64,000 nt of DNA from an uncultured bacterium (GTDB taxonomy: Bacteria > Oederibacteriota > PGYV01 > Palsa-1178), in assembly GCA_937889595.1 (NCBI GenBank), contig CALAOR010000089.1, positions 28,548 through 92,547 of the forward strand. Direction: 5' to 3'. Shown here piece by piece: positions 1-34,270 of this stretch (its first letter is position 1; each line of letters starts with the position of its first letter). A program made the position numbers and the translations under genes. The notes beneath the pieces are model-generated. The model searched no databases. It was not told the origin of the DNA and saw only the letters and a list, made by a program, of their open reading frames with translations.

Positions 1-6
1 GTTGGT

Positions 7-14406: not shown

Positions 14407-16230
14407 ATGGGACAGCAGGCCGGAAAGTATAATTTAGTCACGGTTCTAACCGTTCTATTAATTCTTGCCCTTGCGCAGGTCTTACCCGCCGAGAACGTCA
14501 CGCTCTGCTACCATAGTTTTGAATATTCCCTAAAAAACATTTATGCAACGCTTCCCGATGTGTTTGAATGGCAGACGGACTATATAAAAAGCAAAAACAT
14601 CCCAATAATAAGCCTGGAAGAGTTTGAAAAAAAATACGATTCAGGCGTTATGTCCGGCAACAGCGTGCTCATCACACTGGATGACGGATGGAAATCTTTT
14701 GACAACATACACCGCATAATCGACGATAAATGTTTCCCAATCACCATGTACATATACCCTTCTGTTATCGGGCGCAAGGAAAAATACGCTACACAGCAGG
14801 ATTTGCAGGGTTATGTGTCGGACCCGCTGATATCCATAGGTGTTCACAGCTATACGCATATACCCCTGACAAATCTCGACGGGGGCACGTTAAAAAGGGA
14901 AGTAATAAAGCCAATAGCGAAAATAAGGAAAATAACCGGCTCAAACCTGCCCCTTAACAGCTTTGCTTACCCTTACGGAATGTATGATTCGGCGGTTAAA
15001 GAGGCGGTTAAAGAAAACTACGGTTTTGCGTTTGGCGTAAATGACGAGTCAAATAACCAGCTCACGGACAGGTATAATCTCAACCGTTTTGTACTTTACA
15101 AGAACACAACTTTTGGGGAATTTATGGAAGTGATAAACCATATCTACGGCAAAAACAGGATAAGGGACCACAGGGTTCACGCGCTCGGGATCAGCATGGG
15201 CCTGAGCAAGTATTTCAAATACGCCAAGGTAAAGGTTTATGAATACAGGCCGTATGACGCAAATCAGTGCGTACTGGTCATGCCGGGTTCAAACATGGGC
15301 CCGGGATGGGTGTATAAAATCGCGGATAAAATGAAAAAAATGGGGATAAAAACATACATGACGGTCGGGAGGAACAATAACCTGCCGTTTTACAGGCCGG
15401 ACAAAGAAATGAAATTAATCACTTCATGGGGACTGCCCGAATACCTTGAAGACACAAAAAATCTCCTGGATTATGTGGTTGGCAAGGAAAAAAATATCGT
15501 CATATTGGTTTGGGGCGACAGTTTTGACCTTTTAACCGCGGCAATAGCGGCAAATCCCGGGTATTTTGGGAAAATAAAAGGAATATTGGCCGTTAACCCG
15601 TCCCTGCGCGGATGGGACGGGAACAAGGAATCATATAAAAAAGCGTACATGCAGCTTGACAGGTCCCTTGCCGCGGGGCAGTATTCAACCGAGAATATGT
15701 CGGTTTTTTTAAGCATAAAGACATTGTCGGACATGATGATCCTTAAACCGGATTCCATATCCCCTTTCGGGGCCGAACTCGGCTACAGGAATATTACGAA
15801 TAAGAAGATATTACTGAAAGCTCTTGATAATTTAAATCATCCCGACATGTCTATAAACCTGGATAACCGCGAATTCTCCATGGAAAGTTTTAAGGAGGCT
15901 TTTATGAGGCCTATGCCGCTTTTTTCAATGCTTGAACCAATAAAACTCATAAGGGACATAAATTTCCTAAAATACTCGGATTTTAGGGATGAAAGCCTGG
16001 GCATAAAAGGCCCTGATGGCGTGGCAGTGCCCGTGGTTGTTTTCTATAATGATGACTACTCCCCGAACGTCAGGGCCATGCAGGATACTTTCAAAAATGT
16101 GTCTTTTACCGTAAAACCAATCATGTCCGGGCAGTCAACCATAGAAATACTCCTGTCCGACAAGTTTTCAAATGAGGCTGAGAATGAAGTGCTTAATTTT
16201 ATGAGCGCGGTCCATCCGGGAAAAGACTGA
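14407..16230 (+). CDS. Polysaccharide deacetylase (CE4/NodB homology domain) with a C-terminal extension of unknown function
   Basis: It has a signal peptide and the NodB motifs ITLDDGW and HSYTH, plus a conserved AYPYG block. Confidence 0.7.
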   Translation: MGQQAGKYNLVTVLTVLLILALAQVLPAENVTLCYHSFEYSLKNIYATLPDVFEWQTDYIKSKNIPIISLEEFEKKYDSGVMSGNSVLITLDDGWKSFDNIHRIIDDKCFPITMYIYPSVIGRKEKYATQQDLQGYVSDPLISIGVHSYTHIPLTNLDGGTLKREVIKPIAKIRKITGSNLPLNSFAYPYGMYDSAVKEAVKENYGFAFGVNDESNNQLTDRYNLNRFVLYKNTTFGEFMEVINHIYGKNRIRDHRVHALGISMGLSKYFKYAKVKVYEYRPYDANQCVLVMPGSNMGPGWVYKIADKMKKMGIKTYMTVGRNNNLPFYRPDKEMKLITSWGLPEYLEDTKNLLDYVVGKEKNIVILVWGDSFDLLTAAIAANPGYFGKIKGILAVNPSLRGWDGNKESYKKAYMQLDRSLAAGQYSTENMSVFLSIKTLSDMMILKPDSISPFGAELGYRNITNKKILLKALDNLNHPDMSINLDNREFSMESFKEAFMRPMPLFSMLEPIKLIRDINFLKYSDFRDESLGIKGPDGVAVPVVVFYNDDYSPNVRAMQDTFKNVSFTVKPIMSGQSTIEILLSDKFSNEAENEVLNFMSAVHPGKD

Positions 16231-16431
16231 AGCAAATCGGATGAAATTTTTCCATGTGGTTCTTATTTTTGTTAAGCGTTTAAAAAGGAATGCTGTTGTT
16301 TAACGCAAAAAAATACCCATATTTTAAAGACGAAATTGTGTTTCAAAACCAATGAAACTATTAAATGAAATATTTGCCTAAATTAAGGGATAAAACGTGA
16401 AAAAGGCCGATAAATAAAGGCGAAAATATTC

Positions 16432-16460
16432 TTGACACTATAGTGTCGAAGTGATATATT
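16432..16460 (+). promoter_or_regulatory. Sigma70-like promoter (TTGACA-17-TATATT) with an embedded perfect 14-bp palindrome GACACTATAGTGTC, a candidate operator
   Basis: TTGACA lies at 16432-16437 and tatatt at 16455-16460. The palindrome spans 16434-16447, overlapping the -35 box and the spacer. Confidence 0.5.
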
Positions 16461-16481
16461 CTTTTGTAGAGAGGTGACTTT

Positions 16482-17426
16482 ATGAAAGTAAAAACGTCCG
16501 GAATTTTGGTTTTTACAGCGGTGTTTCTGTCTGTATTTTCCATTAATTTGCTTGCTGATCAGGGAACAACATCAGCGGTATTTTTAAAGCTTGAACAGGG
16601 AGTCAGGCCCATGGCTATGGGCGGGGCCTTTGTTGCCGCGGCTGATGATGTTAACGCGGTAATGTGGAACCCGGCAGGTCTGGCGGCACTTCCTGATTTT
16701 CAAATAACGCTTATGCATGTGATATATTTTGTTGACATGTTCTATTCATATGTTGCGGCGGCATATCCGGCGGGCGATATAGGCACATTCGGGCTTGGGC
16801 TTGTTTATGTTAATTCAGGGCCCATTAAAGCATGGGACAGCAGCGGAAACCCGGGCGCTGATTTTTCAGCGAGTGACATCGGCGTGAACCTCGCTTACGG
16901 GACAAAAATAAACCCCGAACTATCGCTCGGGTTCACGGTAAAGCTATTTGATGAAGCCATAAGTAATACCTCGCGGTTCGGGTTTGCGGCAGACATAGGC
17001 GGTATTTATAAACTGCCTGTCAAGGACCTTCAGATGGGGTTTGTCATAACAAACCTCGGGCCTAAATTCGGATTTGGCGACACTTTCATGCTGCCAATAC
17101 AGTTTAAAGGCGGCTTGAGCTATACCGGAGTAAAAAACCTTATGGTTAACCTGGATTACATACAACCCATAGAGACCAATGGAATAGTCGCGGTGGGGTT
17201 TGAATACTGGTATAAGAATATCATAGCTATACGCATGGGATACCAGTTTCAGGGAAAAATCGATCCAAATGCCCTTTATAATTACGTGGCCAGCCCCGGA
17301 GTACTTGCCGGATTTGTGGCGGGCGCGGGTATAAAATTAGACATATATGAGCTTGATTACTGTTACAAGCAGTATGGTGTTCTTGAAAGCACGCACAGGA
17401 TAGGGCTGACGCTTAAGTTTAAATAA
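16482..17426 (+). CDS. Outer-membrane beta-barrel protein of the FadL/PorV-like family
   Basis: It has a signal peptide and the N-terminal family signature RPMAMGGAFVAAADDVNAVMWNPAGLA. A C-terminal aromatic residue is present. Confidence 0.5.
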   Translation: MKVKTSGILVFTAVFLSVFSINLLADQGTTSAVFLKLEQGVRPMAMGGAFVAAADDVNAVMWNPAGLAALPDFQITLMHVIYFVDMFYSYVAAAYPAGDIGTFGLGLVYVNSGPIKAWDSSGNPGADFSASDIGVNLAYGTKINPELSLGFTVKLFDEAISNTSRFGFAADIGGIYKLPVKDLQMGFVITNLGPKFGFGDTFMLPIQFKGGLSYTGVKNLMVNLDYIQPIETNGIVAVGFEYWYKNIIAIRMGYQFQGKIDPNALYNYVASPGVLAGFVAGAGIKLDIYELDYCYKQYGVLESTHRIGLTLKFK

Positions 17427-17622
17427 TACGCGGGTTTAAATAATATGCGGATTAAAATGATATACTGGCCCGGGAAATTAAGCATTAAGAAAAGGGATAT
17501 AGTCTTTTTTTATATGCGTTTCAAACAGCTGTGGGGATTGCCATTAATACAAATTCGGATTTATCGGTAAAATGTTATGTTTTGGAAAAGATGTCCGGTC
17601 AAATAAAATTCAGGAGGCGAAG

Positions 17623-18723
17623 ATGGCAAGGGTAGTTTTAAAAAACGTTGGGAAAAAGTATGGCAATGTTGTGGCCGTAAAAGACGCTAATATAGTCTGC
17701 GAAGACAAGGAATTTTTAATACTTGTAGGGCCGTCAGGGTGCGGTAAGACAACGACGCTGCGCATGATAGCGGGCCTGGAAGAGATAACAACCGGCGAGA
17801 TATACATAGACGATGTGCTTGTAAATGACATACCGCCCAAAGACAGGGATATAGCGATGGTGTTCCAGAACTACGCGCTGTACCCGCATATGACAGTATA
17901 TGAGAACATGGCATTCGGATTAAAGCTGAGGAAGTACCCGGAAGCGGAGATCAAGCAGAGGGTAATGGAAGCTGCGGACATACTGAGTATAGAGAGATAT
18001 TTGAAGAGAAAGCCCAAGGAACTTTCCGGCGGAGAAAGGCAGAGGGTGGCCGTGGGCCGCGCCATAGTCAGGAAACCCAAAGTATTTTTATTTGACGAGC
18101 CGTTGTCAAACCTGGACGCGAAGCTGAGGGTGCAGATGAGGGCGGAGTTGTCAAAGCTGCACACCAGGCTGCAGGCGACGATGATATATGTGACACATGA
18201 CCAGGTAGAGGCCATGACAATGGGGGAAAAGATAGTTGTGATGAAGGCCACGGAGATACACCAGATATCGCCGCCGAAAGAACTGTATGACAAACCGAAA
18301 AACAAGTTTGTGGCCGGATTCATAGGGAGCCCGTCGATGAACTTCATAGACGGGACATTGGAGTCGAAAAAAGGCGGATTGTATTTCAACGAAGAGAATT
18401 TTGAAGTGCGGCTGCCGGATGCCATGGCGGAAAAGTTAAAGAGCCAGGCAGGGCAGGATATAACAATGGGGATAAGACCGGAAGACATATATGACAAGGT
18501 ATACGCGCCGAACGCGAGCGCGGATAACACGGTGGCCGCGACGGTCGAGGTCGTGGAGCACCTTGGAAGCGAAAGTTTTGTGTACTTAACGACCGGAAAG
18601 ACGCCGTTTATAGCAAAGATGGATTCTGACGCCGAGGTTGAGGTAAATCAGGAAGTGGAGCTTGTGTTTGACATGAACAAGGCCCATTTCTTTGATTCCA
18701 AGACCGAAGCTGCCATAATTTAA
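17623..18723 (+). CDS. Sugar ABC transporter ATP-binding protein (MalK/UgpC/MsmK family), orphan with no adjacent permease
   Basis: Motifs present: Walker A GPSGCGKTT, signature LSGGERQRV, Walker B FLFDEPLSNLD, and a MalK-like C-terminal regulatory domain. There is an RBS (aggagg) 8 nt upstream of ATG 17623. Confidence 0.85.
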   Translation: MARVVLKNVGKKYGNVVAVKDANIVCEDKEFLILVGPSGCGKTTTLRMIAGLEEITTGEIYIDDVLVNDIPPKDRDIAMVFQNYALYPHMTVYENMAFGLKLRKYPEAEIKQRVMEAADILSIERYLKRKPKELSGGERQRVAVGRAIVRKPKVFLFDEPLSNLDAKLRVQMRAELSKLHTRLQATMIYVTHDQVEAMTMGEKIVVMKATEIHQISPPKELYDKPKNKFVAGFIGSPSMNFIDGTLESKKGGLYFNEENFEVRLPDAMAEKLKSQAGQDITMGIRPEDIYDKVYAPNASADNTVAATVEVVEHLGSESFVYLTTGKTPFIAKMDSDAEVEVNQEVELVFDMNKAHFFDSKTEAAII

Positions 18724-18734
18724 AAGGAGGTAGT

Positions 18735-19748
18735 TTGATGAATGGTATAAAAATTAAAGTTTTAGCAATAGCCGCGTCAGCAGTTATTTTTTCAGCGGGT
18801 CTTTTTGCCGCTGCCCCGCAATCGGTTCAGTTTGCAGGGGAATCAATGGCAATAGGCGTGGGCGCAAGGCCTTTGGGCATGGGCGCGACATTTGCCGGTA
18901 TTGCGGACGACGCTTCCACTTCATATTGGAACCCTGCGGGCATGACGAACATTAACGGGGTTGAGGTATCGAGCGTTAAGCTGACAAGGATCAATGATCT
19001 TGATACAAATTATTCCTACGTCAACCTTGTTTATAATACCGGCGTAGCCGGAGCGATTGGCATAGGCTGGCTCAGGCAGTCAATCGGGGGTATAACGATT
19101 ACCGATTCATCGGGAACCATTGTTCCTGGAAAGGATAACATGTCGAACGCTGATAATGTTATATACCTCGCTTATGCGTACCCGATAACCAAGGGATTTT
19201 CAATAGGCTTGGGCGGAAAACTAATGCTTGGAAACTATCCCAACCAATACTCCACTGTTAACTACATGGGCGGAGGGCTTGACGTGGGTTTCTTCTTCAA
19301 AGCGGGTGAATTTGTGAAAGAACTGAAAGGGCTGCAGCTTGGCTTGAATCTTCAGGATGTAATTACCGAGATCAAATGGGATCCGATATCGGGCGTAACC
19401 ACTACCGCCGGAACCACGGAAAAAGTTGACATGAACGCCAAGCCCGGCATAGCGTATAAGATCGATTTTGGACAGTTCGAAATAACGCCCGCGATAGACC
19501 TTGACACCAAATATCAGCTTATAATTCACGGCGGTATGGAACTCTGGTGGAACAAGATGATAGCGATACGCGGAGGCATAAAAAGCTGGGGCGGAATCTC
19601 GAACGGCACGGCCGGCGGCACCCTGACCCAGAGGATGGACTGGAGCATGGGAGCTTCGATCAGATGGTACTTTATCGGCATAGACTATGCTTATGTAGAT
19701 TCCGAGCTGACGCCCGTACAGTACCTCTCAATTGTCGGGAAATTCTGA
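18735..19748 (+). CDS. Second FadL/PorV-like outer-membrane beta-barrel protein, a paralogue of 16482..17426
   Basis: It has a signal peptide and the shared motif RPLGMGATFAGIADDASTSYWNPAGM. Confidence 0.5.
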   Translation: MMNGIKIKVLAIAASAVIFSAGLFAAAPQSVQFAGESMAIGVGARPLGMGATFAGIADDASTSYWNPAGMTNINGVEVSSVKLTRINDLDTNYSYVNLVYNTGVAGAIGIGWLRQSIGGITITDSSGTIVPGKDNMSNADNVIYLAYAYPITKGFSIGLGGKLMLGNYPNQYSTVNYMGGGLDVGFFFKAGEFVKELKGLQLGLNLQDVITEIKWDPISGVTTTAGTTEKVDMNAKPGIAYKIDFGQFEITPAIDLDTKYQLIIHGGMELWWNKMIAIRGGIKSWGGISNGTAGGTLTQRMDWSMGASIRWYFIGIDYAYVDSELTPVQYLSIVGKF

Positions 19749-19823
19749 TCAGTTAAAAAACGGCTGAAAAGCGTTTCAGCGCAAATAAAAAGTTACGAAA
19801 AGGGATCATATATAGGTTATTTT

Positions 19824-19857
19824 AAAAGATAGGAGGGAGGGATCCCTCCTATCTTTT
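19824..19857 (+). terminator. Perfect 15-bp stem / GGGA-loop hairpin followed by T-rich sequence (terminator or attenuator)
   Basis: The sequence is aaaagataggaggga-ggga-tccctcctatctttt. Confidence 0.6.
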
Positions 19858-19881
19858 CTTATTAAAACAGGAGGTTCGTGC

Positions 19882-22227
19882 ATGCGATACGGATATTTTG
19901 ACGACGAGAACAGGGAATATGTTATAACAAGGCCCGATACACCGCTTCCGTGGATCAATTATCTCGGGGTTGATTCCTACTGCGGGCTCATGTCAAATAC
20001 GGCAGGCGGATACAGCTTTTATAAGGACGCGGCGCACAGGCGTCTTTTGCGCTACAGGTATAATAACGTTCCTTCAGACAGGCCGGGCAGGTATATTTAC
20101 CTGCGCGATAATAAATCAAAAGATTACTGGTCCGCCTCATGGCAGCCAACAAATAAGGACCTGAAAAAATATAAATATGAATGCAGGCACGGCCTTTCGT
20201 ACACGAAGATCAGCGCCGAGTACGCGGGCATCAAGAGCGAAACCGCGTATTTTGTTCCTATAGGCGAGGCAAATGAAATATGGAGGATCAAGGTAAAAAA
20301 CAACACAAACAAGGCGCGTTCGATCAGTTTGTTTACTTATGTGGAGTTCTGTCTTTGGGACGCTTTAAACGACATGACCGATTACCAGTACAACCTCAAC
20401 ATAGGAAAGACGGAATTCAGGAATAATTGCATGTACCATCTGACGCTCTATAACATGCACAAGCATAATTTCGCCTACTTCTGGTCAAACACGAAAGTTG
20501 CTTCATACGACGGCGTAAGGCAGGATTTTGTCGGACCGTACAGGGGCGAAGCAAACCCGATCGCGGTTGAAAACGGCAAGTGTTCGGGTTCTCTTGCGGT
20601 CGGATGGGCGCCGTTCGGTGGATTAAACGTAAACCTCACGCTTAAGGCAAAGGAAGAAAAAGAAGTGGTGTTTGTGCTGGGATATGGCGAAGGCCTGGGC
20701 GTTGAAAAGAAAATAATGGAAAAGTACAAGAACCCGAAAAACGTGGACAAGGCTTTGGCGGAATTAAAATCGCACTGGGACGAAAATCTCGCGAAGTACA
20801 CGGTAGAGACTCCGGACCCGGCGGTTAATTCCATGGTCAATATCTGGAACCAGTACCAGTGCAAGACAACATTTAACTGGTCGCGTTCGGCCTCCTACTA
20901 TGAAGCGGGCGGCGAGCGGGGCATGGGTTTCCGCGACTCAAACCAGGATACGCTCGGGTTTGCCCACCAGATACCCGACAAAGTGCGCTTAAGGCTGATC
21001 GACATAGCCTCGGTGCAGTTCCCGGAAGGCCGCGCGCATCACGGCTACTCGCCTTTGACCAAAAAAGGCAGCAAGGAAGGCTTCGGCGACGACCATTTGT
21101 GGCTGGTACAGGCAGTGCATAATTATATAAAAGAAACAGGCGACATGAACTTTTTAAATGAGCTTGTCCCGTATACGGACGGAAGCCGCGGCAAGATGTA
21201 TGAACACGTGCAGAGAGCCGTGGAATATTCATGGAACAACACAGGTTACCATGGCCTGCCAAAAGCAGGGACAGCCGACTGGAACGACTGCCTTAACTTA
21301 AGCGGGCCGAAAGGCATGGGCGTATCGGTCATGATAGCCTGCCAGTTTGTAATGGGCGCCAACCTGCTTTCGGAACTCGCAGAAAAATCAGGCAGGGTGC
21401 TTGATGTGGAAAAATACAGGGATATGGCCGTGGAAATGAAGAAAAGGATCAATGAAAAAGCCTGGGACGGCGAGTGGTACATGAGGGCCTTTGACGACAA
21501 CGGTACGCCGGTCGGGACATCCAAAACCGAAGAGGGAAAAATATGGCTTGAATCAAACACCTGGGCGGTAATGTCGGGGGTTGCCGAAGGCGACAGGATG
21601 ATACAGACACTGGACTCGATAAAAAAGAACCTTTACACAAAATACGGCATAGTGCTTTTCTACCCGGCATATTCACAGTACCATCCCGAGCTCGGCTATG
21701 TTTCGGTATTCCCGAGGGGCCTAAAAGAAAACGCGGCGATATTCTGCCACACAAATCCGTGGGCCATGTGTGCGGAAGCCATTGCCGGCCGCGGGGAGCA
21801 GGCATTTAAGTACTACAAGACCATACTGCCTTCCGCTTCAAACGACATAGCCGATATACACTGGACAGAGCCGTATGTATACTCGCAGATGATAGCTGGA
21901 AAAGAGCATAAGGACTTCGGGCAGGCAAAGAACAGCTGGCTGACCGGTACCGCGGCATGGAACTTTGTGGCGGCTTCACAGTATATACTCGGGGTAAGGC
22001 CGGATTTTGACGGATTGATCATAGACCCCTGCATACCCAAAACATGGAAGGGTTTTAAGGTTAAAAGGGTATGGAGGGGCACGACATACCGTATCAACGT
22101 GACAAACCCGAAGAAGGTAAACAAGGGCGTGTTTAACCTGACCGTTGACGGAAAAGCTGTTAAAGGCAATAAAGCGCCTATATTCAAGGACGGCAGGGAA
22201 CATACAGTTGAAGCAGTAATGGGATAG
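19882..22227 (+). CDS. Cellobiose (cellodextrin/chitobiose-type) phosphorylase, glycoside hydrolase family 94
   Basis: N-terminus MRYGYFDDENREYVITRPDTPLPWINYLG. Conserved blocks present include RDSNQDTLGF, ADWNDCLNL, KNSWLTGTAAWNF and GVRPDFDGL. Confidence 0.85.
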   Translation: MRYGYFDDENREYVITRPDTPLPWINYLGVDSYCGLMSNTAGGYSFYKDAAHRRLLRYRYNNVPSDRPGRYIYLRDNKSKDYWSASWQPTNKDLKKYKYECRHGLSYTKISAEYAGIKSETAYFVPIGEANEIWRIKVKNNTNKARSISLFTYVEFCLWDALNDMTDYQYNLNIGKTEFRNNCMYHLTLYNMHKHNFAYFWSNTKVASYDGVRQDFVGPYRGEANPIAVENGKCSGSLAVGWAPFGGLNVNLTLKAKEEKEVVFVLGYGEGLGVEKKIMEKYKNPKNVDKALAELKSHWDENLAKYTVETPDPAVNSMVNIWNQYQCKTTFNWSRSASYYEAGGERGMGFRDSNQDTLGFAHQIPDKVRLRLIDIASVQFPEGRAHHGYSPLTKKGSKEGFGDDHLWLVQAVHNYIKETGDMNFLNELVPYTDGSRGKMYEHVQRAVEYSWNNTGYHGLPKAGTADWNDCLNLSGPKGMGVSVMIACQFVMGANLLSELAEKSGRVLDVEKYRDMAVEMKKRINEKAWDGEWYMRAFDDNGTPVGTSKTEEGKIWLESNTWAVMSGVAEGDRMIQTLDSIKKNLYTKYGIVLFYPAYSQYHPELGYVSVFPRGLKENAAIFCHTNPWAMCAEAIAGRGEQAFKYYKTILPSASNDIADIHWTEPYVYSQMIAGKEHKDFGQAKNSWLTGTAAWNFVAASQYILGVRPDFDGLIIDPCIPKTWKGFKVKRVWRGTTYRINVTNPKKVNKGVFNLTVDGKAVKGNKAPIFKDGREHTVEAVMG

Positions 22228-22235
22228 GCGGGTAA

Positions 22236-23765
22236 TTGGGGAAAATGGAGAGAAGGTTATCCAAACCACAAAAACAGAAAAAACTTAAGATATTGATCGC
22301 GGCCTCGGAAGTCGTGCCTTTTGCAAAGACAGGCGGCCTGGCTGATGTGACGGGCGCGCTGCCAAAGGCGCTGCGCAGCCTGGGACATGATGTGCGCGTG
22401 GTCATGCCGTTTTACCGCCAGATAGACCGGATAAAATACTGCATAAAGCAAACCGAAAAAAAGATAAGCATAAATATAGCCCTTGTCGACCACCCGGCTA
22501 TCATTCATGAAGGATTCCTGCCTGATTCAGATGTTCCGGTTTACTTTATTGATTGTAAAAGTTTTTTTGACAGGGAGGAAATATACCGCACATCCCGCGG
22601 CGAGTACTGGGATAATAACGAGCGTTTCATGTATTTTTCAAAGGCTGTTATTGAAATGATCAGGGTCTCGGACTGGGTGCCTGAAGTTATAAACTGCAAT
22701 GACTGGCATACGGGCCTGATCCCGGTATTCTTAAAAACAATATACGCTTTTGACCCGGCCTTAAAGGACATTGCCGCGGTTTACTCCATCCACAACATAG
22801 CCTACCAGGGTTTTGCCTCAAAAGACATGATATCCCACGCCGGCCTGCCATGGGACATATTTAACATGCACCAGCTTGAATTCTACGGCGGCATCAATTA
22901 CATGAAGGGCGGCATTGTATTCTCCGATGCAATCAATACGGTCTCGGAAAAATACAAGGAAGAAATAAAAACACCCGAATACAGTTATTACCTCGAAGGC
23001 GTATTGGCCGCAAGGGACAAGGATCTATTCGGCATCTTAAACGGTATAGACTACACGTCATGGGACCCGGCAACAGACAAGTGCCTGCCCGTAAACTATA
23101 CGCCAGAAAACATGGCCCCCAAGGAAGAAATAAAGAAAAAACTTCTCGGAGAATTCGGGTTAAAGTATTATGAAAATGTCCCGGTAATAGGCATGGTCTC
23201 AAGGCTGGACCAACAGAAGGGCCTTGATTTTATAGAAACCATAATTGAAGAAATGATGAAGTTAAACCTGCAGTTCGTGGTCTTAGGCACAGGCGAAGAG
23301 CATTATCACCGGCTGTTCCGTGAATTAACGGCAAGATATCCGGAAAAATTGGGCGTGTCCCTGAAATTTGACAACAGCACCGCACACAATATTTACGCAG
23401 GTTCTGACATGTTCCTGATGCCGTCCAGGTTTGAGCCCTGCGGCCTGGGCCAGCTGATATCGTTAAAGTACGGCACAGTCCCGATAGTAAGGGAAACAGG
23501 CGGCCTGGCAGACACCATTAAACAGTATGATTTTAAGGCCAAAAAAGGGAACGGCTTCACGTTCCAGGGTTACAACCCGTGGGACCTGTTCAGGGCCATA
23601 CACGTAGCCACAGACACATACAAAAACAAATCAGTATGGGAGAGGCTCCAGCAGGCCGGCATGAAAGAGAACTTCTCCTGGGACATAGCCGCGGCCAAAT
23701 ACGTGGAATTATACTACCTGGCAATACACAATAAAAACTTGAAAAATACCGAAAAATCTGTATAA
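22236..23765 (+). CDS. glgA: Glycogen (starch) synthase, ADP-glucose type
   Basis: The KTGGLADV motif and a GT-B C-terminal domain (EPCGL) are present. The exact start is uncertain. Confidence 0.85.
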   Translation: MGKMERRLSKPQKQKKLKILIAASEVVPFAKTGGLADVTGALPKALRSLGHDVRVVMPFYRQIDRIKYCIKQTEKKISINIALVDHPAIIHEGFLPDSDVPVYFIDCKSFFDREEIYRTSRGEYWDNNERFMYFSKAVIEMIRVSDWVPEVINCNDWHTGLIPVFLKTIYAFDPALKDIAAVYSIHNIAYQGFASKDMISHAGLPWDIFNMHQLEFYGGINYMKGGIVFSDAINTVSEKYKEEIKTPEYSYYLEGVLAARDKDLFGILNGIDYTSWDPATDKCLPVNYTPENMAPKEEIKKKLLGEFGLKYYENVPVIGMVSRLDQQKGLDFIETIIEEMMKLNLQFVVLGTGEEHYHRLFRELTARYPEKLGVSLKFDNSTAHNIYAGSDMFLMPSRFEPCGLGQLISLKYGTVPIVRETGGLADTIKQYDFKAKKGNGFTFQGYNPWDLFRAIHVATDTYKNKSVWERLQQAGMKENFSWDIAAAKYVELYYLAIHNKNLKNTEKSV

Positions 23766-23819
23766 TATCACAGTTTTATAAAATGTGATTTTCTGGATAA
23801 AAAAAAGAATATAGAGCAT

Positions 23820-23894
23820 GTCCCCATCGTCTAACGGTTAGGACACCGCCCTTTCACGGCGGTAATGGGAGTTCGATTCTCCCTGAGGACGCCA
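23820..23894 (+). tRNA. tRNA-Glu (anticodon UUC), CCA encoded
   Basis: The cloverleaf was folded by eye. The anticodon loop is CTTTCAC and the T-arm is GGGAGTTCGATTCTCCC. There is one C-A mismatch in the acceptor stem. Confidence 0.8.
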
Positions 23895-23930
23895 AAAACG
23901 ATGGCCAGCGTAAGCTGGCCATCGTTTTTG
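23895..23930 (+). terminator. Perfect hairpin terminator after tRNA-Glu
   Basis: The stem is aaaaacgatggccagc-gtaa-gctggccatcgttttt. Confidence 0.7.
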
Positions 23931-23935
23931 GCGGA

Positions 23936-24211
23936 GCAGATTGAGCAGGTTGAACAGTTGAGCAGGTTGACGAACTAATCTAAACAAACTCAACTGTTTG
24001 CCGCACCACCACGCAATCTGCGGTCAATCTGCTCAACCTGCTCAATCTGTTCAGGTTTTGGTTTCAAAACGTAGGGGGTGATAATTCAAGTTTTCCATAT
24101 GTGTTGAGCGTCAAAACTCACTGAATTTTATAATCTAAAACTCATTCTTCCGGTTTCATTCCGGCTTGTTTTTTGTCCTCTCCACCTGCTCAATCTGTTC
24201 AACTGTTCGAC
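23936..24211. repeat. Array of direct and inverted ~12-bp TGAGCAGGTTGA / TGCTCAA(C/T)CTG motifs at the tRNA-proximal edge of the AT-rich island
   Basis: The left arm spans 23936-23972 and the imperfect inverse arm 24012-24056. A further copy lies at 24183-24211. Confidence 0.6.
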
Positions 24212-24234
24212 TTCAAAATATATGGGGTAAGTTT

Positions 24235-24522
24235 ATGTTCATGTTCGAAAACCTGCAGGTCTACCAAAAGTCCGTAGACCTTGCCGAAAAGATCACATCC
24301 ATCACCCACGATTTCCCGAAAGGCTACTTCTACTTAACGGACCAGCTAAACCGGGCGATTCTCTCCGTAACCCTGAACATCACCGAAGGCAACGGCCGTT
24401 GGCATAAAAACGACCGCAAACATTTTTTCTATATCTCCCGGGGTTCGACCCAGGAGTGTGTGCCTATTCTGGAACTGTGCAGGCGCAAGAAACTTATTTC
24501 AGATGAGGTTAATATGGAATGA
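24235..24522 (+). CDS. Four-helix-bundle protein (23S rRNA intervening-sequence protein family)
   Basis: The sequence MFENLQVYQKSVDLAEKI...LNRAILSVTLNITEGNGRWHKNDRKHFFYISRGSTQECVPILEL is typical of PF05635. Confidence 0.7.
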   Translation: MFMFENLQVYQKSVDLAEKITSITHDFPKGYFYLTDQLNRAILSVTLNITEGNGRWHKNDRKHFFYISRGSTQECVPILELCRRKKLISDEVNME

Positions 24523-24644
24523 AAATAGGCTCGGAAAACTACAAAAACATTAAAGCAAAGGTCAAATTTTGCCGATAATGGTATAACGATGAAGTAGGCA
24601 CCACAATTGGTTGACTAATTGTCTAACTTATTGTAATATTCTTT

Positions 24645-25064
24645 ATGGGACAAATAAGGATAGATACAAAAAGTTATCAAAACATTGACTTGGCACGATA
24701 TCATTTTAGAAAGACACATAATTACTTTAATGTAGTGATAAGTAATATGTATTATGGAGTATTTCAACTAATAAAGCATAAGCTATATAATTGGTATATT
24801 AACAATCATCGCTCAACAAAAGAAGTTGATTTTTTTAAACACAGTGATATCAAAACAAGACTTAAAGAATATGCATTAGATAAACAGGTTGCAGGATATG
24901 CACCTCAAATACAAACAAGGGTTGAAGATTATTTGTATTCTCTTCGAGAAACGAGAAGAGTATCAGATTATCACTTTACAAGTCCTATCATAGAACACGA
25001 GGAATTTAGAACTTTACTGGTAAAAAGTAGATTTATAATAGAGGTAATGAATAAAATATTTTAG
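24645..25064 (+). CDS. Small alpha-helical protein of unknown function with a C-terminal Rx4-6H motif (possible HEPN-like domain); first gene of a tight three-gene cassette
   Basis: It is 139 aa and AT-rich, with the motif RETRRVSDYH near the C-terminus. No other recognisable family. Confidence 0.4.
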   Translation: MGQIRIDTKSYQNIDLARYHFRKTHNYFNVVISNMYYGVFQLIKHKLYNWYINNHRSTKEVDFFKHSDIKTRLKEYALDKQVAGYAPQIQTRVEDYLYSLRETRRVSDYHFTSPIIEHEEFRTLLVKSRFIIEVMNKIF

Positions 25065-25071
25065 GAGAATT

Positions 25072-25581
25072 ATGAGAAAAAATGATGCAGTGATAAGCCG
25101 AATAAAGGATGAATTAAAGGAAAAGTTTAGCCCTAAAAAGTTAGTTTCTAAATTTGATTCTGATTCGCAAGAATACGTTATAATGGTTGATAGAAAAACC
25201 ATTAGGCGTAAAGATTTTGCAGAATGGAGCGTTAGGCTATTAGATGATGTTAGAAAAATGAATATTAATTTAGTTTTCACGTCACATATTCCCGTGGAAA
25301 CTTTAACCGAATATAAGAAGGTTGGTATATATTCGGAAATGTTAAAAACAATTTGGAGTTCTTTCGAAAAGTTAGAAAAAGTAGATGTAAAATTAGAGTT
25401 TGTTTCGGAAAATGTATCAGGTGACTATGGATGGAATAAGTTTTTGGTAAAAAGCCAGATGAAAACTCAAAATAAAATTGCAACGAATGATTTTGGATTA
25501 AATAGAGTGGAAGTTAAAAAAGTTATCAATACGGAATTAACAACGATTAAATTTCAAAGGGACTTTGCGGTGGCGGCATAA
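25072..25581 (+). CDS. Hypothetical protein, second gene of the cassette
   Basis: It is 169 aa. An RBS (aggag) lies 7 nt after the upstream stop, and its stop overlaps the start of the next gene. Confidence 0.45.
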   Translation: MRKNDAVISRIKDELKEKFSPKKLVSKFDSDSQEYVIMVDRKTIRRKDFAEWSVRLLDDVRKMNINLVFTSHIPVETLTEYKKVGIYSEMLKTIWSSFEKLEKVDVKLEFVSENVSGDYGWNKFLVKSQMKTQNKIATNDFGLNRVEVKKVINTELTTIKFQRDFAVAA

Positions 25582-26057
25582 TGTCTGAAAACCAGAATAA
25601 CAATATCAATATAAGCACAATACTTTTAGAAGAGTTAGAATTTAAGCGTAAACCAAACGTGCCTGATTATTTAATTGATGCATCGAAGTTTGATGCAGGT
25701 AAATTAGATTTTGCAACGTCGATAGAAAGGGCATTCTCCGAAAAAGGGGATGCGTTAATATTAAGAGTTAGAATTGCGATTACTGAAAAGGATGTTGCAG
25801 AACCGACGTTTAATCTTGTCTGTAAGATGGTTGGAATATTTAGTCAGGAAGAATCAGGCAGTATTTCTCTTGAAAAATTTGCCGAATATAATGCACCTGC
25901 TATAATAATTCCTTATATGAGAGAAGTCATAAGCAGTATATCAACGAAAGCAGGAATAATACCAATTATAATTCCACCACTAAATTTAATTAAAATGATA
26001 AATGAAGCAAAGACCATTCCTGGTGACGATAAGAAATTAATGCAAGATAAAAAATAA
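25581..26057 (+). CDS. Hypothetical protein, third gene of the cassette
   Basis: It is 158 aa. Its start overlaps the previous stop in a TAATG arrangement. Confidence 0.45.
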   Translation: MSENQNNNINISTILLEELEFKRKPNVPDYLIDASKFDAGKLDFATSIERAFSEKGDALILRVRIAITEKDVAEPTFNLVCKMVGIFSQEESGSISLEKFAEYNAPAIIIPYMREVISSISTKAGIIPIIIPPLNLIKMINEAKTIPGDDKKLMQDKK

Positions 26058-26144
26058 TTCCGATAGTCTATTATATAAGATAATCGGTTTCTCCGTCCTC
26101 ATCCAGTTGCGAATGTCGTCTATCTTGGAACGCCAATACAGAAG

Positions 26145-26177
26145 AGCCGTTTTGTCACAAGCAGAACGGCTTTTTTT
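26145..26177 (+). terminator. Rho-independent terminator downstream of the three-gene cassette
   Basis: The hairpin gccgttttgtcacaagcagaacggc is followed by a T-run. Confidence 0.55.
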
Positions 26178-26253
26178 CGTTATGGGACAAGGTTAATCCA
26201 AATAGACAAAAGTTCAAGTTTTATCCATCAAAACAGACAGGCAGACCGACCGA

Positions 26254-26311
26254 CCAACCAACCAACCAACCAACCAACCAACCAACCAACCAACCAACCA
26301 ACCAACCAACA
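26254..26311. repeat. Tetranucleotide microsatellite, (CCAA)~14
   Basis: ccaaccaacc... runs uninterrupted for about 56 nt, preceded by (gacc)3. Confidence 0.9.
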
Positions 26312-26437
26312 CTCGAACTTTAACCTTGCCTTTGTTATTTGTGGTGGCAAAATATGAATAGGATGAGAAATAAAGGGGAAAAATTAATAATCAACTCACA
26401 CCGGCTCACCCATCACATATTCGCTGGAGGCTTATAA

Positions 26438-27073
26438 ATGGAAATAAAAAATATGGTAATTATTGTTCTTTTATCAGTTTGTATTTTTATTTCTTGTCAG
26501 GGGAAGGATAAAAAGGTAAAACAAGCAGAGAATAATCAGTCAAAAAATAACCAGCATCTTTATACGGATATAACCCGGGTTGAAGAGGATATTCCAACTC
26601 AAGTTGAAAATGCTACTCCAACAGAAAACAAACAATATACTATTAAAGGCATTGAACAAATTCGTAACGACATTTTAAAAGAATCAGTACTCAATTTCTG
26701 TAAATTTACCAAAAAGCAAAATTACTCGGCTATTTATAAATATTTGTCAAAGGGTTATTTTGAATTACTACCTTCTAAGACTAAAATTAAGACAGCCAAT
26801 CAGTATATCGATTTTATGCGTAATTCATCGGAGATGGAAGAGACAAAAACTGACAAATTTTTGAAAATTATGAGCGTGCAATACATTGATGTCGCAACGG
26901 CCTATGTTGAAATTGTAAGCGAAGCGATTAACGAAGGTGACTATCATAAAGTTAAATCGATTTATGTTTTTAAAATGGAAAATGGAATATGGAAATTTGA
27001 CGGCATAGTTTTAAAAAGCATTAAAATCATTAAAACCATTCTTAATCGAGATATGGAAGAAACCCCTATGTAA
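26438..27073 (+). CDS. Lipoprotein of unknown function (possible NTF2-like/DUF4878-type fold)
   Basis: A signal peptide with lipobox (FISC) is present and the gene is AT-rich. The C-terminal segment reads DYHKVKSIYVFKMENGIWKFDGIVL. Confidence 0.4.
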   Translation: MEIKNMVIIVLLSVCIFISCQGKDKKVKQAENNQSKNNQHLYTDITRVEEDIPTQVENATPTENKQYTIKGIEQIRNDILKESVLNFCKFTKKQNYSAIYKYLSKGYFELLPSKTKIKTANQYIDFMRNSSEMEETKTDKFLKIMSVQYIDVATAYVEIVSEAINEGDYHKVKSIYVFKMENGIWKFDGIVLKSIKIIKTILNRDMEETPM

Positions 27074-27115
27074 GTTTACAATCAAGCCAACTGCAAATAA
27101 AAAACAAAGGAGCCT

Positions 27116-27418: not shown

Positions 27419-27607
27419 CCCATACCATATGGTTTGATAACTAAAATCGTAAAATTCAGGGTTAAGGAAAATTTTATAGCAAAGAAAAAAAACGCATAAA
27501 CTACCGCGTTATTTCGGAGTAAAATGTGCAGCTTTTATGGAACTTTTTTGGGTTTTAACTGTCCAATATATATCTATATTTATAAGCCCAAAACCAGAGG
27601 TGAAAAG

Positions 27608-28900
27608 ATGAAAAAAGCAATGTCCGCAGTTTTAGTTATGATCAGTTTCTTGTTTTTTGTGGTATTATCCCAGGGCTGCGCCGCTAAGCACACGCCGGCT
27701 TCTGTAACAGGCGCTGACAATTCCGCAACAATCCAGTCATGCGTACCTAAAAAAGGCAATAATGTTTTTGCCGGCGATTTTTATGCCAAATGCAAGGACA
27801 CCACAAGCGGAAATGTGTTTTTCTCGCCTTATTCGATTTTTTCCGCGCTTTCAATGACATACGAAGGGGCAAAAGGCGCCACGGCTGACCAGATGGCTGC
27901 CGTGTTGCACCTTCCGAGCGATTCGGCTGCGCGCTTGGCCGGATTTGTCGAGCTTATGGGAGCCATTAACGCGCCCGGGAAAAATTACACTCTTAGTACG
28001 GCAAACAACCTCTGGCTTCAGACGGATTTCACTGTTTATCCGAGTTATACCTCTGTACTCACGCAGTATTACCTTGCTACTATCACGCTTCTTGATTTTG
28101 TGAATGATACGGAAAATTCGAGGTTGACCATAAACAATACGGTGGCAAACGAGACAAATAATAAAATAACAGACCTCTTGCCGTCCGGCACCATTACGAA
28201 TAAAACACGGCTTGTACTTACCAATGCGATTTATATGAAGGCTGACTGGGCGATCAAGTTCAAGGCGGCACTTACAATTACCGATAATTTCAATACCACT
28301 GCCTCAACGCCGGTTAAGGTATCCATGATGAGCCAGACTCTTGGAGGCAGCATAGAGGATTATTACGGCGCAGCGCAGGTATATGAGATGCCTTATGTGA
28401 ACAATGAACTTTCAATGTTCATCTTTTTGCCGCTCCAGGGCCAGATGGCAGGCCTGGAAAGCGTTATGACAGGGAACAAGTTAAATGACTGGTTCGCGGC
28501 CAGGACAGCTCCCGCGGCTCTGATAATAGGCGGGGTTGAGGTAATACTCCCGAAATTCACATTTACGGAAAACTATGACCTTACATCAGTACTGCCGGCT
28601 ATGGGAATGCCGCTGGCGTTTTCGGAAACTGGCGCTGATTTTACGGGCATAGCAAAGATCCCGGGCAAAAATCTTTATATTTCAAAGGTGCTGCATAAGG
28701 CTTTTGTGTCCGTTGACGAAGCGGGAACAGAAGCTGCCGCGGCCACGGCCGTGATAATTACGGTAATCACTTCAATCGCAACACAACCCCTTATCCCGCA
28801 GATTTTCAGGGTTGACCATCCGTTTATTTTCGTGATAAGGGAAAACACCACGAACGCGATTCTTTTCATGGGCAGGGTAATGGACCCGACGGCAAATTAA
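27608..28900 (+). CDS. Serpin (serine protease inhibitor), probable lipoprotein
   Basis: A lipobox (LSQGC) is present. Serpin blocks include NVFFSPYSIFSALSMTYEGAKG and LVLTNAIYMKADW. The reactive-centre hinge is GTEAAAATA and the C-terminal block is VDHPFIFVIRE. Confidence 0.8.
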   Translation: MKKAMSAVLVMISFLFFVVLSQGCAAKHTPASVTGADNSATIQSCVPKKGNNVFAGDFYAKCKDTTSGNVFFSPYSIFSALSMTYEGAKGATADQMAAVLHLPSDSAARLAGFVELMGAINAPGKNYTLSTANNLWLQTDFTVYPSYTSVLTQYYLATITLLDFVNDTENSRLTINNTVANETNNKITDLLPSGTITNKTRLVLTNAIYMKADWAIKFKAALTITDNFNTTASTPVKVSMMSQTLGGSIEDYYGAAQVYEMPYVNNELSMFIFLPLQGQMAGLESVMTGNKLNDWFAARTAPAALIIGGVEVILPKFTFTENYDLTSVLPAMGMPLAFSETGADFTGIAKIPGKNLYISKVLHKAFVSVDEAGTEAAAATAVIITVITSIATQPLIPQIFRVDHPFIFVIRENTTNAILFMGRVMDPTAN

Positions 28901-30594: not shown

Positions 30595-30966
30595 ATGCCA
30601 ATAGGCGAGATGTATATGGACAGGCGAAAGCATAAGAGGGCGCAGGCAAAACTCACCGTGACTTACAGGGTCATGTCTGATGATGAGTTTGAAAAGCCCG
30701 TGCCTGAAACCGAAAGGCGCCGCAAAGTTGAAACTGAAGACATAAGCACAACAGGATTGCAGCTCATATGTGATGAAGAAATAGGAAAGGATAAAATAGT
30801 AAGGCTTGACGTAGACATGGACAACACGGGAGGGACCCTTGCGACTTTCGCGGAAGTCAAATGGGCAAGGCGGGATGATGCCTTAAAAAAATACAGGGTT
30901 GGCCTGCAATTTCTGGTCGTAAAAGAAGACCACATAGCGGCAATCAGGAAGATAACAGGAGAATAG
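30595..30966 (+). CDS. PilZ domain protein (c-di-GMP binding)
   Basis: The RRKHKR (RxxxR) and DISTTG (DxSxxG) motifs are present. Confidence 0.65.
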   Translation: MPIGEMYMDRRKHKRAQAKLTVTYRVMSDDEFEKPVPETERRRKVETEDISTTGLQLICDEEIGKDKIVRLDVDMDNTGGTLATFAEVKWARRDDALKKYRVGLQFLVVKEDHIAAIRKITGE

Positions 30967-31117
30967 TTCATATTCTCCGGAAAAAACGCGAATAAAATAT
31001 GGGAAAAAGCATTTTGAAAGTTTTATGTCAGTTTTTAATTGACATCGTCTAAAATAGAGGTATAATGTATAGACACAACAGGATACTAAATTATCTTCTT
31101 TACAGGAGGTTGTTTGC

Positions 31118-32206: not shown

Positions 32207-32261
32207 GGCTAAAAAGCAGCCCCATGGTCTTAAGGGTTGAAATTTATGGCGGAGGATTTTA

Positions 32262-33464: not shown

Positions 33465-33574
33465 TGGCAAAATGAACAAATAAAAATAGTAACAAAAAAC
33501 TTGACAAAATGCAGGTTGACGGCTATAATAACTTTAAGAGGCTTAAAATTTTAAAAGAAAAAGGAGGTGAGAGT

Positions 33575-34027: not shown

Positions 34028-34040
34028 AACATCATTTCGA

Positions 34041-34084
34041 AAAGGCCGGAAATTTTCCAAAAGAAAATTCCGGCCTTTTTTTTT
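34041..34084 (+). terminator. Rho-independent terminator after the pilin gene
   Basis: The hairpin ggccggaattttcc...ggaaaattccggcc is followed by a T9 run. Confidence 0.7.
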
Positions 34085-34270
34085 GATGGTTGTTTGTTTT
34101 TCGGAGCTTGCGCGACGAAAAACAATTACAACCATCAATCCCCGGTCAAGTCCTCGCCTACTGGCGAGGACGAGCGGGATAATATAATAGTACGGGTGGG
34201 TTGTCTTGTTTTGCCTTGCCTTGCCTTGCTTGAGCGAGGAAAAACAAACAACCATCAATCCCCGCAAAAA
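34083..34270. repeat. Structured intergenic repeat element, copy 1: two hairpins plus a gggataatataatag tail
   Basis: The hairpins ttgatggttgtttgttttt...aaaaacaattacaaccatcaa and gtcctcgcctactggcgaggac are homologous to 55297..55405. The differences between copies are compensatory. Confidence 0.7.

Follow-up and report, generated by a model that had tools for sequence, protein, structure and literature searches.

What brings the gene for a lone sugar-importer ATPase between the genes of two outer-membrane barrels? We addressed this question in a 64 kb stretch of DNA (hereafter the window) from an uncultured bacterium (contig CALAOR010000089.1), in which a gene for a MalK-type ATP-binding cassette (ABC) ATPase is flanked by two genes for outer-membrane beta-barrel proteins, OMP1 and OMP2. 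A preliminary description of this DNA had taken the group for a sugar-uptake unit: an ATPase shared among importers, expressed together with dedicated outer-membrane channels for glucans or cellodextrins, and controlled by a repressor at a palindrome in the promoter. The sequence features on which it drew were all found again by open reading frame (ORF) listing and scans (Table 1), and the order of barrel, ATPase, and barrel proved to be real, unusual, and conserved in the lineage. The reading that we favor keeps the shared ATPase but takes the barrels to be PorV-like partners of secreted proteins and the palindrome not to be an operator. We give this package as a whole an even chance of being right, and its parts are graded separately below. 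All of the parts belong to known protein families, and what is new is the context: PorV-family barrels in a candidate phylum outside the Fibrobacteres-Chlorobi-Bacteroidetes (FCB) group, detached from their usual gene partner and wrapped around a sugar-ABC ATPase gene in an arrangement that the lineage has conserved.

A conserved operon of two barrels and an ATPase

Orthologs of OMP1 (56-80% identity) occur in metagenome-assembled genomes (MAGs) labeled Candidatus Goldbacteria/Goldiibacteriota or candidate division FCPU426, or mislabeled as "uncultured Spirochaetia". We refer to this group, to which the source bacterium belongs, as the Goldbacteria lineage. We compared gene order at the 17 loci of a species-level genome collection in which OMP1 is at least 60% identical (loci drawn from this collection are numbered with the prefix L). 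Wherever the sequence ran far enough past OMP1 (12 loci), the ATPase gene came next; in all five loci that extend further, OMP2 and then a gene of glycoside hydrolase (GH) family 94 followed, with glgA next in three. The ATPase is the most conserved of the encoded proteins (82-94% identity to its relatives, compared with 60-77% for OMP1, 52-64% for OMP2, and 69-85% for GH94). Judged from these sequences, gene order and promoter are conserved in every assessable relative, beyond what chance would give. The ATP-synthase operon just upstream is likewise syntenic, so conserved order at this place is by itself no proof of shared function. Outside the lineage, this ATPase was beside PorV-like genes in none of 63 distant loci, where we saw only unrelated ABC ATPases of 24-37% identity.

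The operon once appears to have been longer. Most relatives (L005-L007, L010-L013, L018, and L086) carry an intact UPF0047/YjbQ gene of 129-132 amino acids (aa) between OMP1 and the ATPase gene, overlapping the OMP1 stop codon. The corresponding spacer of the window (17427..17622) holds a remnant of it, which tblastn with the L005 protein aligned at 35% identity over 34 aa (E 1e-3). A C-terminal fragment, clearer than that of the window, persists in L004, and the gene is cleanly absent from L008, L009, and L015. This distribution indicates that UPF0047 has been lost repeatedly, from an ancestral operon that probably had four genes where the window now has three. We had considered the 196-bp spacer as a hidden regulatory element and rejected this in favor of the decayed gene.

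Between OMP1 and the ATPase gene the distance is 196 bp in the window and 22-35 bp in L008, L009, and L015. The ATPase and OMP2 genes are separated by 11-14 bp, a tight junction retained in most relatives, and OMP2 starts 14 nt past the ATPase stop codon with its own AAGGAGG ribosome-binding site. A terminator scan found no terminator on the + strand between OMP1 and the ATPase gene or elsewhere inside the unit. After OMP2 there is a hairpin with a 15-bp stem, a GGAT loop, and a T-rich tail, about 20 nt before the ribosome-binding site of GH94; a hairpin and T-run followed OMP2 in 6/6 loci examined. Because the gaps are short, no terminator lies inside, and one follows OMP2, we predict that OMP1-(UPF0047)-ATPase-OMP2 is one transcription unit and that GH94-glgA is a separate unit downstream, so that a place for GH94 and glgA in the same transcript is not supported.

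For two genes of the unit the start codon needed a decision. Family alignments and public gene calls on identical contigs agree on 17623 as the start of the ATPase, and neither backs a longer ORF from 17572, which we discarded. The likelier start codon of OMP2 is ATG 18738, which comes 7 nt after the AAGGAGG site and agrees with a public call of 336 aa; TTG 18735 is possible.

The stem after OMP2, GATAGGAG...CTCCTATCTTTT, recurs in L005, L009, and L013, although the proteins there are 58-64% identical. Such conservation of the stem sequence is unusual for a plain terminator, and the hairpin might be an attenuator or a protein-binding element that controls GH94-glgA. It had no Rfam match; a scan of the whole window with Rfam returned three tRNAs only, with no riboswitch or leader near the operon.

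The promoter is conserved and the palindrome is not

The promoter upstream of OMP1 consists of TTGACA (16432..16437), a 17-nt spacer, the extended -10 dinucleotide TG (16452..16453), and TATATT (16455..16460); the start codon of OMP1 follows about 20 nt downstream. At 11/12 positions plus TG, it is the best sigma-70-like site in 16200..24200. The same elements (TTGACA, 17 nt, TG, and a TATATT-like -10 box) stand upstream of OMP1 in 17/17 orthologous loci, which is striking given the 60-80% identity of the encoded proteins; the sequence of the spacer varies freely. Retention in every locus, together with the near-consensus form, suggests strong and probably constitutive expression.

In the preliminary description, the perfect 14-bp palindrome GACACTATAGTGTC that overlies the -35 box and spacer was an obvious repressor operator. 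The palindrome is there as described, and comparison did not bear out its role. In the promoters of the 16 orthologous loci, only 0-4 of the 7 arm positions match and the palindrome is absent from all of them; its right arm occurs only in this strain, and its left arm is the conserved GACA(C) of the -35 hexamer. The window contains six perfect 14-bp palindromes, close to the number expected from shuffles (3.8 +/- 1.7). A motif search of the window found no second copy with up to three mismatches except for one chance-level match inside an atp gene, and the scanned ORFs of the window showed no transcription-factor or regulator gene. Since the palindrome is not conserved, not repeated, and no more frequent than chance, with no regulator among the scanned ORFs, it is almost certainly not an operator. 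We regard it as a chance feature of this one strain, superimposed on the GACA(C) that is conserved in the -35 hexamer.

Family and fold of the two barrels

OMP1 and OMP2 are paralogs, as had been noted for their N-terminal signature, with 30% identity over 248 aa (E 2e-19) and the related motifs MGGAFxAxADDxxxxxWNPAG and MGATFxxxADDxxxxxWNPAG. This G-x-G...A-D-D...W-N-P-A-G pattern reads as a generic hatch motif, common to the entire FadL/PorV superfamily. Both proteins pass the NCBIfam model for the PorV/PorQ family (NF033709; cutoff 90 bits), OMP1 with 186.3 and OMP2 with 109.3 bits. Against the Pfam model of the FadL branch (Toluene_X, PF03349; gathering cutoff 29.7), they reach only 24.5 and 22.4 bits, and the alignment covers the hatch alone (profile positions 24-58). 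The Pfam family UPF0164 was matched by them at or near threshold.

AlphaFold2 models built on alignments of 48 sequences were confident and showed each protein with a signal peptide, an N-terminal plug that is short and helical, and 14 strands (pLDDT 88.4 for OMP1, with WNPAG in the N-terminal hatch, and 87.9 for OMP2, with 14 main strands). The hatch residues N63/P64 of OMP1 and N65/A67 of OMP2 are invariant in these alignments. In Foldseek searches of the PDB, PorV of Flavobacterium johnsoniae ranked first for both. For OMP1, the chains 8gl6_F and 6h3i_F (TMq 0.73 and 0.72) were followed by FadL, TbuX, and TodX; for OMP2, 8gl6_F (TMq 0.68) was followed by FadL and TodX. The lower matches were FadL, TbuX, TodX, and CymD (TMq 0.52-0.67) and then BamG, and similarity to the sugar channels CymA, KdgM, and OmpG was weak (TMq 0.38-0.51). 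We rejected an identity as BamG, to which weak NCBIfam and Foldseek matches had pointed, at 22 bits against a cutoff of 250. The preliminary description had left it to structure prediction whether the barrels are FadL-like or PorV-like and had named the latter as the result that would speak against its channels; at the level of family and fold, the models are PorV-like.

The likeness to PorV and PorQ from type IX secretion systems (T9SS) in F. johnsoniae and Porphyromonas gingivalis (6H3I and 8GL6, chain F) thus extends to the NF033709 family, a plugged barrel of 14 strands, and TMq values of 0.68-0.73. It also extends to genome context, with type-A-like C-terminal domain (CTD) proteins encoded in the same genome and with family members that typically stand directly behind a CTD-bearing gene, as porV does behind porU. 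Unlike these T9SS proteins, however, OMP1 and OMP2 are only 15-20% identical to them and far under the equivalog cutoffs, are smaller (about 290-310 mature residues) with short loops, and come from a non-FCB phylum; T9SS core genes were not seen with them, and their genes enclose a cytoplasmic sugar-ABC ATPase gene and have no adjoining CTD gene. With FadL, TodX, TbuX (PF03349), and the UPF0164 OMPs of Treponema they share the superfamily fold and the N-terminal hatch signature G-x-G...D-D...W-N-P-A-G, but their TM-scores to this group (0.52-0.67) are lower than to PorV, they are about 100 residues shorter than FadL, and no fatty-acid or aromatic catabolic genes lie nearby. What they have in common with glycan channels such as SusC/SusD, CymA, LamB, and KdgM is an outer-membrane barrel near glycan-catabolic genes; there is no sequence or family match, and in the OMPs an N-terminal hatch plugs the barrel, in place of an open or TonB-gated pore for sugars. 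To our knowledge, the characterized members of the FadL/PorV superfamily bind hydrophobic ligands or protein CTDs and not hydrophilic oligosaccharides.

Some OMP2-like barrels of the PorV/PorQ family are fused to SLH domains (P0186 and P0190-P0199, 428-577 aa, from Margulisbacteria and related MAGs). By analogy with OmpM/SLH porins, these fusions suggest a barrel that may serve as a tether from the outer membrane to peptidoglycan.

PorV-like genes often follow genes for CTD-tagged proteins

We clustered the neighbors of the 63 distant family members mentioned above (25-42% identity to OMP1) and found that the dominant neighboring gene lies directly upstream in the same orientation and codes for a large secreted protein. 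In Bacteroidia this protein is PorU, in Margulisiibacteriota a subtilase, in Poribacteria an adhesin-like protein of 2,300 aa, and in Elusimicrobia a protein that combines a PQQ propeller with fn3 and Por_Secre_tail (about 1,070 aa; Por_Secre_tail 31.3 bits, cutoff 27). All four kinds end in a T9SS-type CTD. With a profile made from these CTDs we found, in 33 of the 58 distant loci that could be assessed, a CTD-bearing gene ending no more than 400 bp upstream of the PorV-like gene, compared with a CTD rate of 5% among the other genes of the same loci (binomial p about 7e-28, a rough guide only, as the loci are phylogenetically related). These pairs span L022-L082, from Elusimicrobia, Poribacteria, Firestonebacteria/FCPU426, and Margulisiibacteriota to FCB phyla; examples are L024 (4593..7847 and 8001 onward), L033 (4731..7892), L064 (5855..7894), and L046 (894..7826).

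The closest out-paralogs of OMP2 (42-47% identity) all stand behind the gene of a CTD-tagged protein, at distances of 19-121 bp (647 bp in one case). The proteins encoded there are a 1,420-aa enzyme with GH30, GH43, and the carbohydrate-binding modules (CBMs) CBM6, CBM35, and CBM3, as well as CBM3 proteins, an arabinofuranosidase-like protein, and a ricin-lectin protein, and LacI regulators and GH62 genes lie alongside. The link to polysaccharides that the preliminary description drew therefore holds in part: nothing points to sugar conduction by the barrels, and the link stands as the nearest OMP2 paralogs behind CTD-tagged xylanase/CBM3 proteins near LacI and GH62. The loci themselves (L083, L085, and L088-L092, with the paralogs P0170, P0172, P0102, P0171, and P0166) resemble polysaccharide utilization loci, in the order of a CTD-tagged multi-domain carbohydrate-active enzyme (CAZyme) or CBM3 protein, the PorV-like barrel, a LacI regulator, and then GH62 genes or large unknown proteins. 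In one of them, a PilZ gene lies between the CBM3-CTD protein and the barrel. The basal OMP1 orthologs (L018, L086, and L087) are preceded by an F5/8-type-C protein of 991-995 aa with a weak FlgD-like CTD.

The window itself contains a candidate CTD at the C-terminus of ORF 1..1146, which scored 24.1 bits with TIGR04183 (cutoff 23), 26.8 with Por_Secre_tail (PF18962; cutoff 27), and 25.2 with FlgD_ig. On this evidence, which is one protein near threshold, the source genome would encode at least one CTD-tagged protein. A homolog search with an index of sequence words found no matches for its 94-aa CTD, and an exhaustive search of representatives showed the domain to be very common (10,215 representatives). 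The 29 closest C-terminal relatives carry the domain after a Thr/Pro-rich linker and match FlgD_ig (26/29), Por_Secre_tail (15/29), and CHU_C (10/29). Their passenger domains are diverse with no enrichment for CAZymes, so the link of CTDs to CAZymes rests on the neighborhoods of the OMP2 paralogs and not on this CTD subtype. The protein of ORF 1..1146 has DUF11 repeats, a Thr/Pro-rich linker, and a type-A-like CTD in a phylum not known for a T9SS.

Published work portrays Goldbacteria as degraders of cellulose, equipped with numerous cellulases and a pathway through cellobiose phosphorylase, and a supplementary table of the same report lists a Goldbacteria cellulose-binding protein with a FlgD-Ig-like domain (PMC7031533). 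Taken together, the gene pair of a CTD protein followed by a PorV-like barrel appears to recur in Elusimicrobia, Firestonebacteria, Margulisiibacteriota, Poribacteria, and the Goldbacteria group, and we regard this as a more interesting lead than the operon itself. Several unrelated candidate phyla conserve, as paired genes, a partnership of CTD and PorV that is regarded as a hallmark of the FCB T9SS.

A second kind of barrel sandwich was seen in L049, L052, and L059 (7884..11634; labeled Firestonebacteria/FCPU426), where two PorV-like barrels of 344 and 517 aa flank a 184-aa HAMP-domain membrane protein. It follows the gene of a CTD-tagged protein, and its filling differs from the ATPase sandwich.

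The orphan ATPase and its candidate client

The ATPase has the domains of a sugar-importer subunit (ABC_tran PF00005, OB_MalK PF17912, and TOBE PF03459 and PF08402). It passes the model for the UgpC subfamily (NF008653; 483.2 bits, cutoff 432) and stays under that for the MalK equivalog (428.7 bits, cutoff 568), so it is not E. coli-type MalK itself. The closest solved structures are 7X0Q, 2D62, MsmX (6YIR), and MalK of T. litoralis (1G29); for 7X0Q, no relevant paper came up in the literature searched. No permease or binding protein is encoded at its locus, where the flanking genes are the OMPs. An importer without an ATPase is encoded elsewhere in the window, with a substrate-binding protein (SBP; 51604..52902), two permeases (53044..53964 and 54000..55235) that NCBIfam classes as UgpA/UgpE/MalF/MalG-like, and no nucleotide-binding domain (NBD). 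The genes after 55235 encode Opp-type permeases with two OppD/F-type ATPases of their own. The preliminary description had paired the lone ATPase with this ATPase-less importer, and both halves of that observation stand.

Orphan CUT1 ATPases that serve several importers lacking an NBD are an established arrangement (MsmX, MsmK, and MsiK; PMC7658222), and a lone ATPase is thus ordinary in kind. Mutagenesis of MsmX found D77, R104, E110, and K154 to matter for promiscuous function, at positions that in E. coli MalK are occupied by G, A, V, and S; the authors caution that this set of four charged residues is not strictly required (PMC7658222). Aligned to 6YIR, the ATPase of the window has all four (D76, R103, E109, and K153). 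Like MsmX of B. subtilis (6YIR), MsmK of S. pneumoniae, and MsiK of Streptomyces, it is a stand-alone MalK-type NBD with a C-terminal regulatory OB/TOBE region, in a genome with NBD-less CUT1 operons, with the four multitask residues, and in the setting of oligosaccharides from plant polymers. It differs from them in belonging to a diderm candidate phylum, in the place of its gene between two barrel genes (and, ancestrally, beside UPF0047), and in the promoter that it shares with OMP1. The lone NBD, the NBD-less CUT1 importer, and the four MsmX residues argue for the MsmK-style role proposed earlier, and the ATPase is likely to be a shared NBD for CUT1 importers. The importer at 51604..55235 is probably among its clients. 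The MalG-like permease 54000..55235 is extended at its N terminus by about 195 aa, which match Peptidase_M23 and biotin-lipoyl-like domains weakly and below threshold; this is unusual for a CUT1 permease.

The favored reading and its alternatives

In the reading that we favor, the genes would form a lineage-conserved operon, with transcription starting at an extended -10 sigma-70 promoter close to consensus and ending at a hairpin terminator. A dimer of the ATPase would dock onto NBD-less CUT1 permease pairs, for example 53044..55235 with the SBP 51604..52902, and would thereby power the import of oligosaccharides that feed GH94 cellobiose phosphorylase and glycogen synthesis; support for both of these steps is good. 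The GH94 protein is in keeping with such a route, as it matches C. thermocellum cellobiose phosphorylase (3QDE) over its full length with 868 bits. The barrels, with moderate support, would not be hydrophilic sugar channels but PorV-like outer-membrane partners that receive or hold secreted proteins with T9SS-type (Ig-like) CTDs. Glycoside hydrolases and CBM3 proteins would be among such CTD-tagged partners in this organism group. OMP1 and OMP2 would serve as general copies with constitutive expression, and the paralogs beside particular CAZyme genes as dedicated ones. For the PorV-like role of OMP1 and OMP2 taken alone, which we predict from family, fold, and the neighborhoods of relatives, we put the chances slightly below even.

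A wider version of this proposal would make the PorV-like barrel and the CTD protein a widespread surface-display module outside the FCB group (in Goldbacteria, Elusimicrobia, Firestonebacteria, Margulisiibacteriota, and Poribacteria), possibly without a canonical T9SS translocon. OMP1 and OMP2 would then be constitutive general receptors that hold CTD-tagged cellulases and binding proteins on the cell surface, and co-transcription with a universal ATPase would balance the breakdown of glycans at the surface against their uptake. We consider this wider version unlikely. If the favored reading itself is true, it offers a handle on the organization of the cell surface in an uncultured cellulolytic phylum, with PorV-type barrels as receptors of CTD-tagged CAZymes and a single ATPase shared by the sugar importers.

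Several observations weigh against the barrels as PorV-like partners. Both OMPs miss the equivalog cutoffs for PorV, PorQ, and PorV2 (NF033710, NF033711, and NF052325; 250, 220, and 325 bits, respectively) by a wide margin, with 79.2, 141.1, and 65.1 bits for OMP1 and 38.3, 24.6, and 73 bits for OMP2. No CTD match adjoins OMP1 or OMP2 in the window, in L003-L017, or in L019, and the polysaccharide deacetylase encoded before OMP1 gave none. The CTD matches are near threshold, and the Ig-like CTD is also an internal tandem repeat in many proteins and so is not always a sorting signal. Neither the scanned ORFs of the window nor the lineage loci yielded a gene of the T9SS core (SprA/Sov, PorK/L/M/N, PorU, and PorZ). 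Adjacency to GH genes fits an uptake channel equally well. The ATPase gene between two barrel genes has no mechanistic explanation, and UPF0047 in the operon, together with the conserved ATP-synthase operon, suggests inherited gene order, which may be the whole story.

If inheritance is indeed the whole story, OMP1 and OMP2 could be housekeeping barrels of the FadL type with no functional tie to the ATPase: abundant general OMPs that take up hydrophobic compounds by lateral diffusion, like FadL and TodX, or that are mainly structural. We think this somewhat unlikely. It draws on the hatch with its NPA motif and the barrel of 14 strands that are common to FadL, TodX, and TbuX, on the UPF0164 matches, on a strong conserved promoter typical of major OMP genes, and on the SLH-fused relatives of OMP2, which suggest use in structural tethering. 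The UPF0164 proteins of Treponema, an organism without a described T9SS, are treated as FadL-family OMPs with a proposed role in uptake (PMC12369335). The presence of an unrelated UPF0047 gene and a syntenic ATP-synthase operon likewise means that order need not imply shared function. Yet the Toluene_X scores stay under the gathering cutoff while the PorV/PorQ model is clearly passed, the best structural match is PorV and not FadL, lipid uptake does not explain the family-wide association with CTD genes, and the short junction between the ATPase gene and OMP2 has been kept in most relatives. Were the barrels ordinary FadL-type OMPs after all, the locus would be merely a lineage-specific gene order and its lesson a cautionary one: a perfect palindrome over a -35 box and a neat sandwich of two barrels and an ATPase, however regulatory or functional they appear, need not survive a simple comparison.

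The original model, in which the barrels are glucan or cellodextrin channels that are repressed through the palindrome, induced by sugar, and served by a shared MsmK-style ATPase, shares with the favored reading its well-supported part, the ATPase. It can also appeal to the lineage-conserved position beside GH94 and glgA, to the OMP2-like paralogs clustered with GH30, GH43, GH62, and LacI genes, and to the cellulolytic habit of Goldbacteria (PMC7031533). As a whole we find it improbable: the barrels belong to a plugged superfamily and model as PorV, the palindrome is neither conserved nor repeated nor enriched and has no regulator among the window ORFs scanned, the element that is conserved is a near-consensus promoter of constitutive appearance, and a terminator separates GH94 and glgA from the unit. 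Outside the lineage, moreover, the common neighbor of the family is a CTD protein of any kind (PQQ propeller, subtilase, or PorU) and not a sugar gene or sugar transporter. The family membership that speaks against a sugar channel could point instead to a canonical T9SS, of which OMP1 and OMP2 would be the PorQ and PorV orthologs, with a divergent but complete system elsewhere in the genome and no relation to sugar import. The best specific models (PorQ for OMP1, PorV2 and PorV for OMP2), the top structural rank of PorV, and the type-A-like CTD protein in the window are in line with this. The wide miss at every equivalog cutoff is not, nor is the lack of any T9SS core gene both in the window and among the 17 lineage loci that we searched for neighbors of the CTD and PorU type, and we hold such a system to be very improbable here. 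Two reports (PMC12398890, PMC5445135) describe the T9SS as confined to the FCB group. In the searchable literature we found no paper that links the T9SS or PorV with Goldbacteria or Elusimicrobia, or that reports a pairing of CTD protein and barrel outside the FCB group, which is absence of evidence only.

Coordinates and other features of the window

Table 1. Positions in the window of the operon, its control elements, and the other genes discussed.
Feature	Position	Strand	Basis or remark
Sigma-70-type promoter (-35 TTGACA, 17-nt spacer, extended -10 TG, -10 TATATT)	16432..16460	+	
Perfect 14-bp palindrome GACACTATAGTGTC	16434..16447	.	Over -35 box and spacer; strain-specific, probably not functional
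OMP1, PorV/PorQ-family outer-membrane barrel, 314 aa	16482..17426	+	NF033709, AlphaFold2, Foldseek
Decayed UPF0047/YjbQ remnant	17504..17605	+	tblastn with L005 protein
Orphan MalK/MsmX-type CUT1 ABC-importer ATPase, 366 aa	17623..18723	+	Pfam, NCBIfam
OMP2, PorV/PorQ-family barrel, 336 aa from ATG 18738	18738..19748	+	NF033709, AlphaFold2, Foldseek
Intrinsic-terminator hairpin	19825..19861	+	Terminator scan and RNAfold
GH94 cellobiose-phosphorylase-like enzyme, in predicted separate downstream unit with glgA	19882..22227	+	Pfam GH94 domains
Glycogen synthase GlgA	22236..23765	+	TIGR02095, 572 bits
CUT1 sugar importer without own ATPase	51604..55235	+	SBP_bac_1 and BPD_transp_1 (Pfam)
Secreted DUF11-repeat protein, 5'-truncated at window edge, T9SS type-A-like CTD	1..1146	+	TIGR04183
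Secreted polysaccharide deacetylase	14407..16230		Slot before OMP1; ORF listing and family scans

Near the start of the window, an ORF of 872 aa (1651..4269) had no Pfam or NCBIfam match. Downstream of glgA, tRNA-Glu (23820..23894) is followed by an island of low GC content (34% compared with about 46%; tRNA and island together 23820..27100) that encodes a four-helix protein of the 23S-rRNA-intervening-sequence type, a SecB-like protein, and several ORFs without a family match, and that contains an (ACCA)n tetranucleotide repeat at 26245..26310. Probably this island is an integrated element; a search for the tRNA-Glu end as a direct repeat on its flanks found none. Beyond it, a bacterial serpin of 458 aa (27524..28900; Pfam Serpin, 367 bits) adjoins a GH13 cyclomaltodextrinase-like enzyme (29036..30523). 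The region 30595..40461 holds a complete cluster for a type IV pilus or a system like the type II secretion system, with PilZ, a PilB/T-type ATPase, PilC, a pilin, a prepilin peptidase, PilM/N/O, and a secretin of 807 aa with AMIN and STN domains. This cluster is a possible alternative export route for surface proteins.

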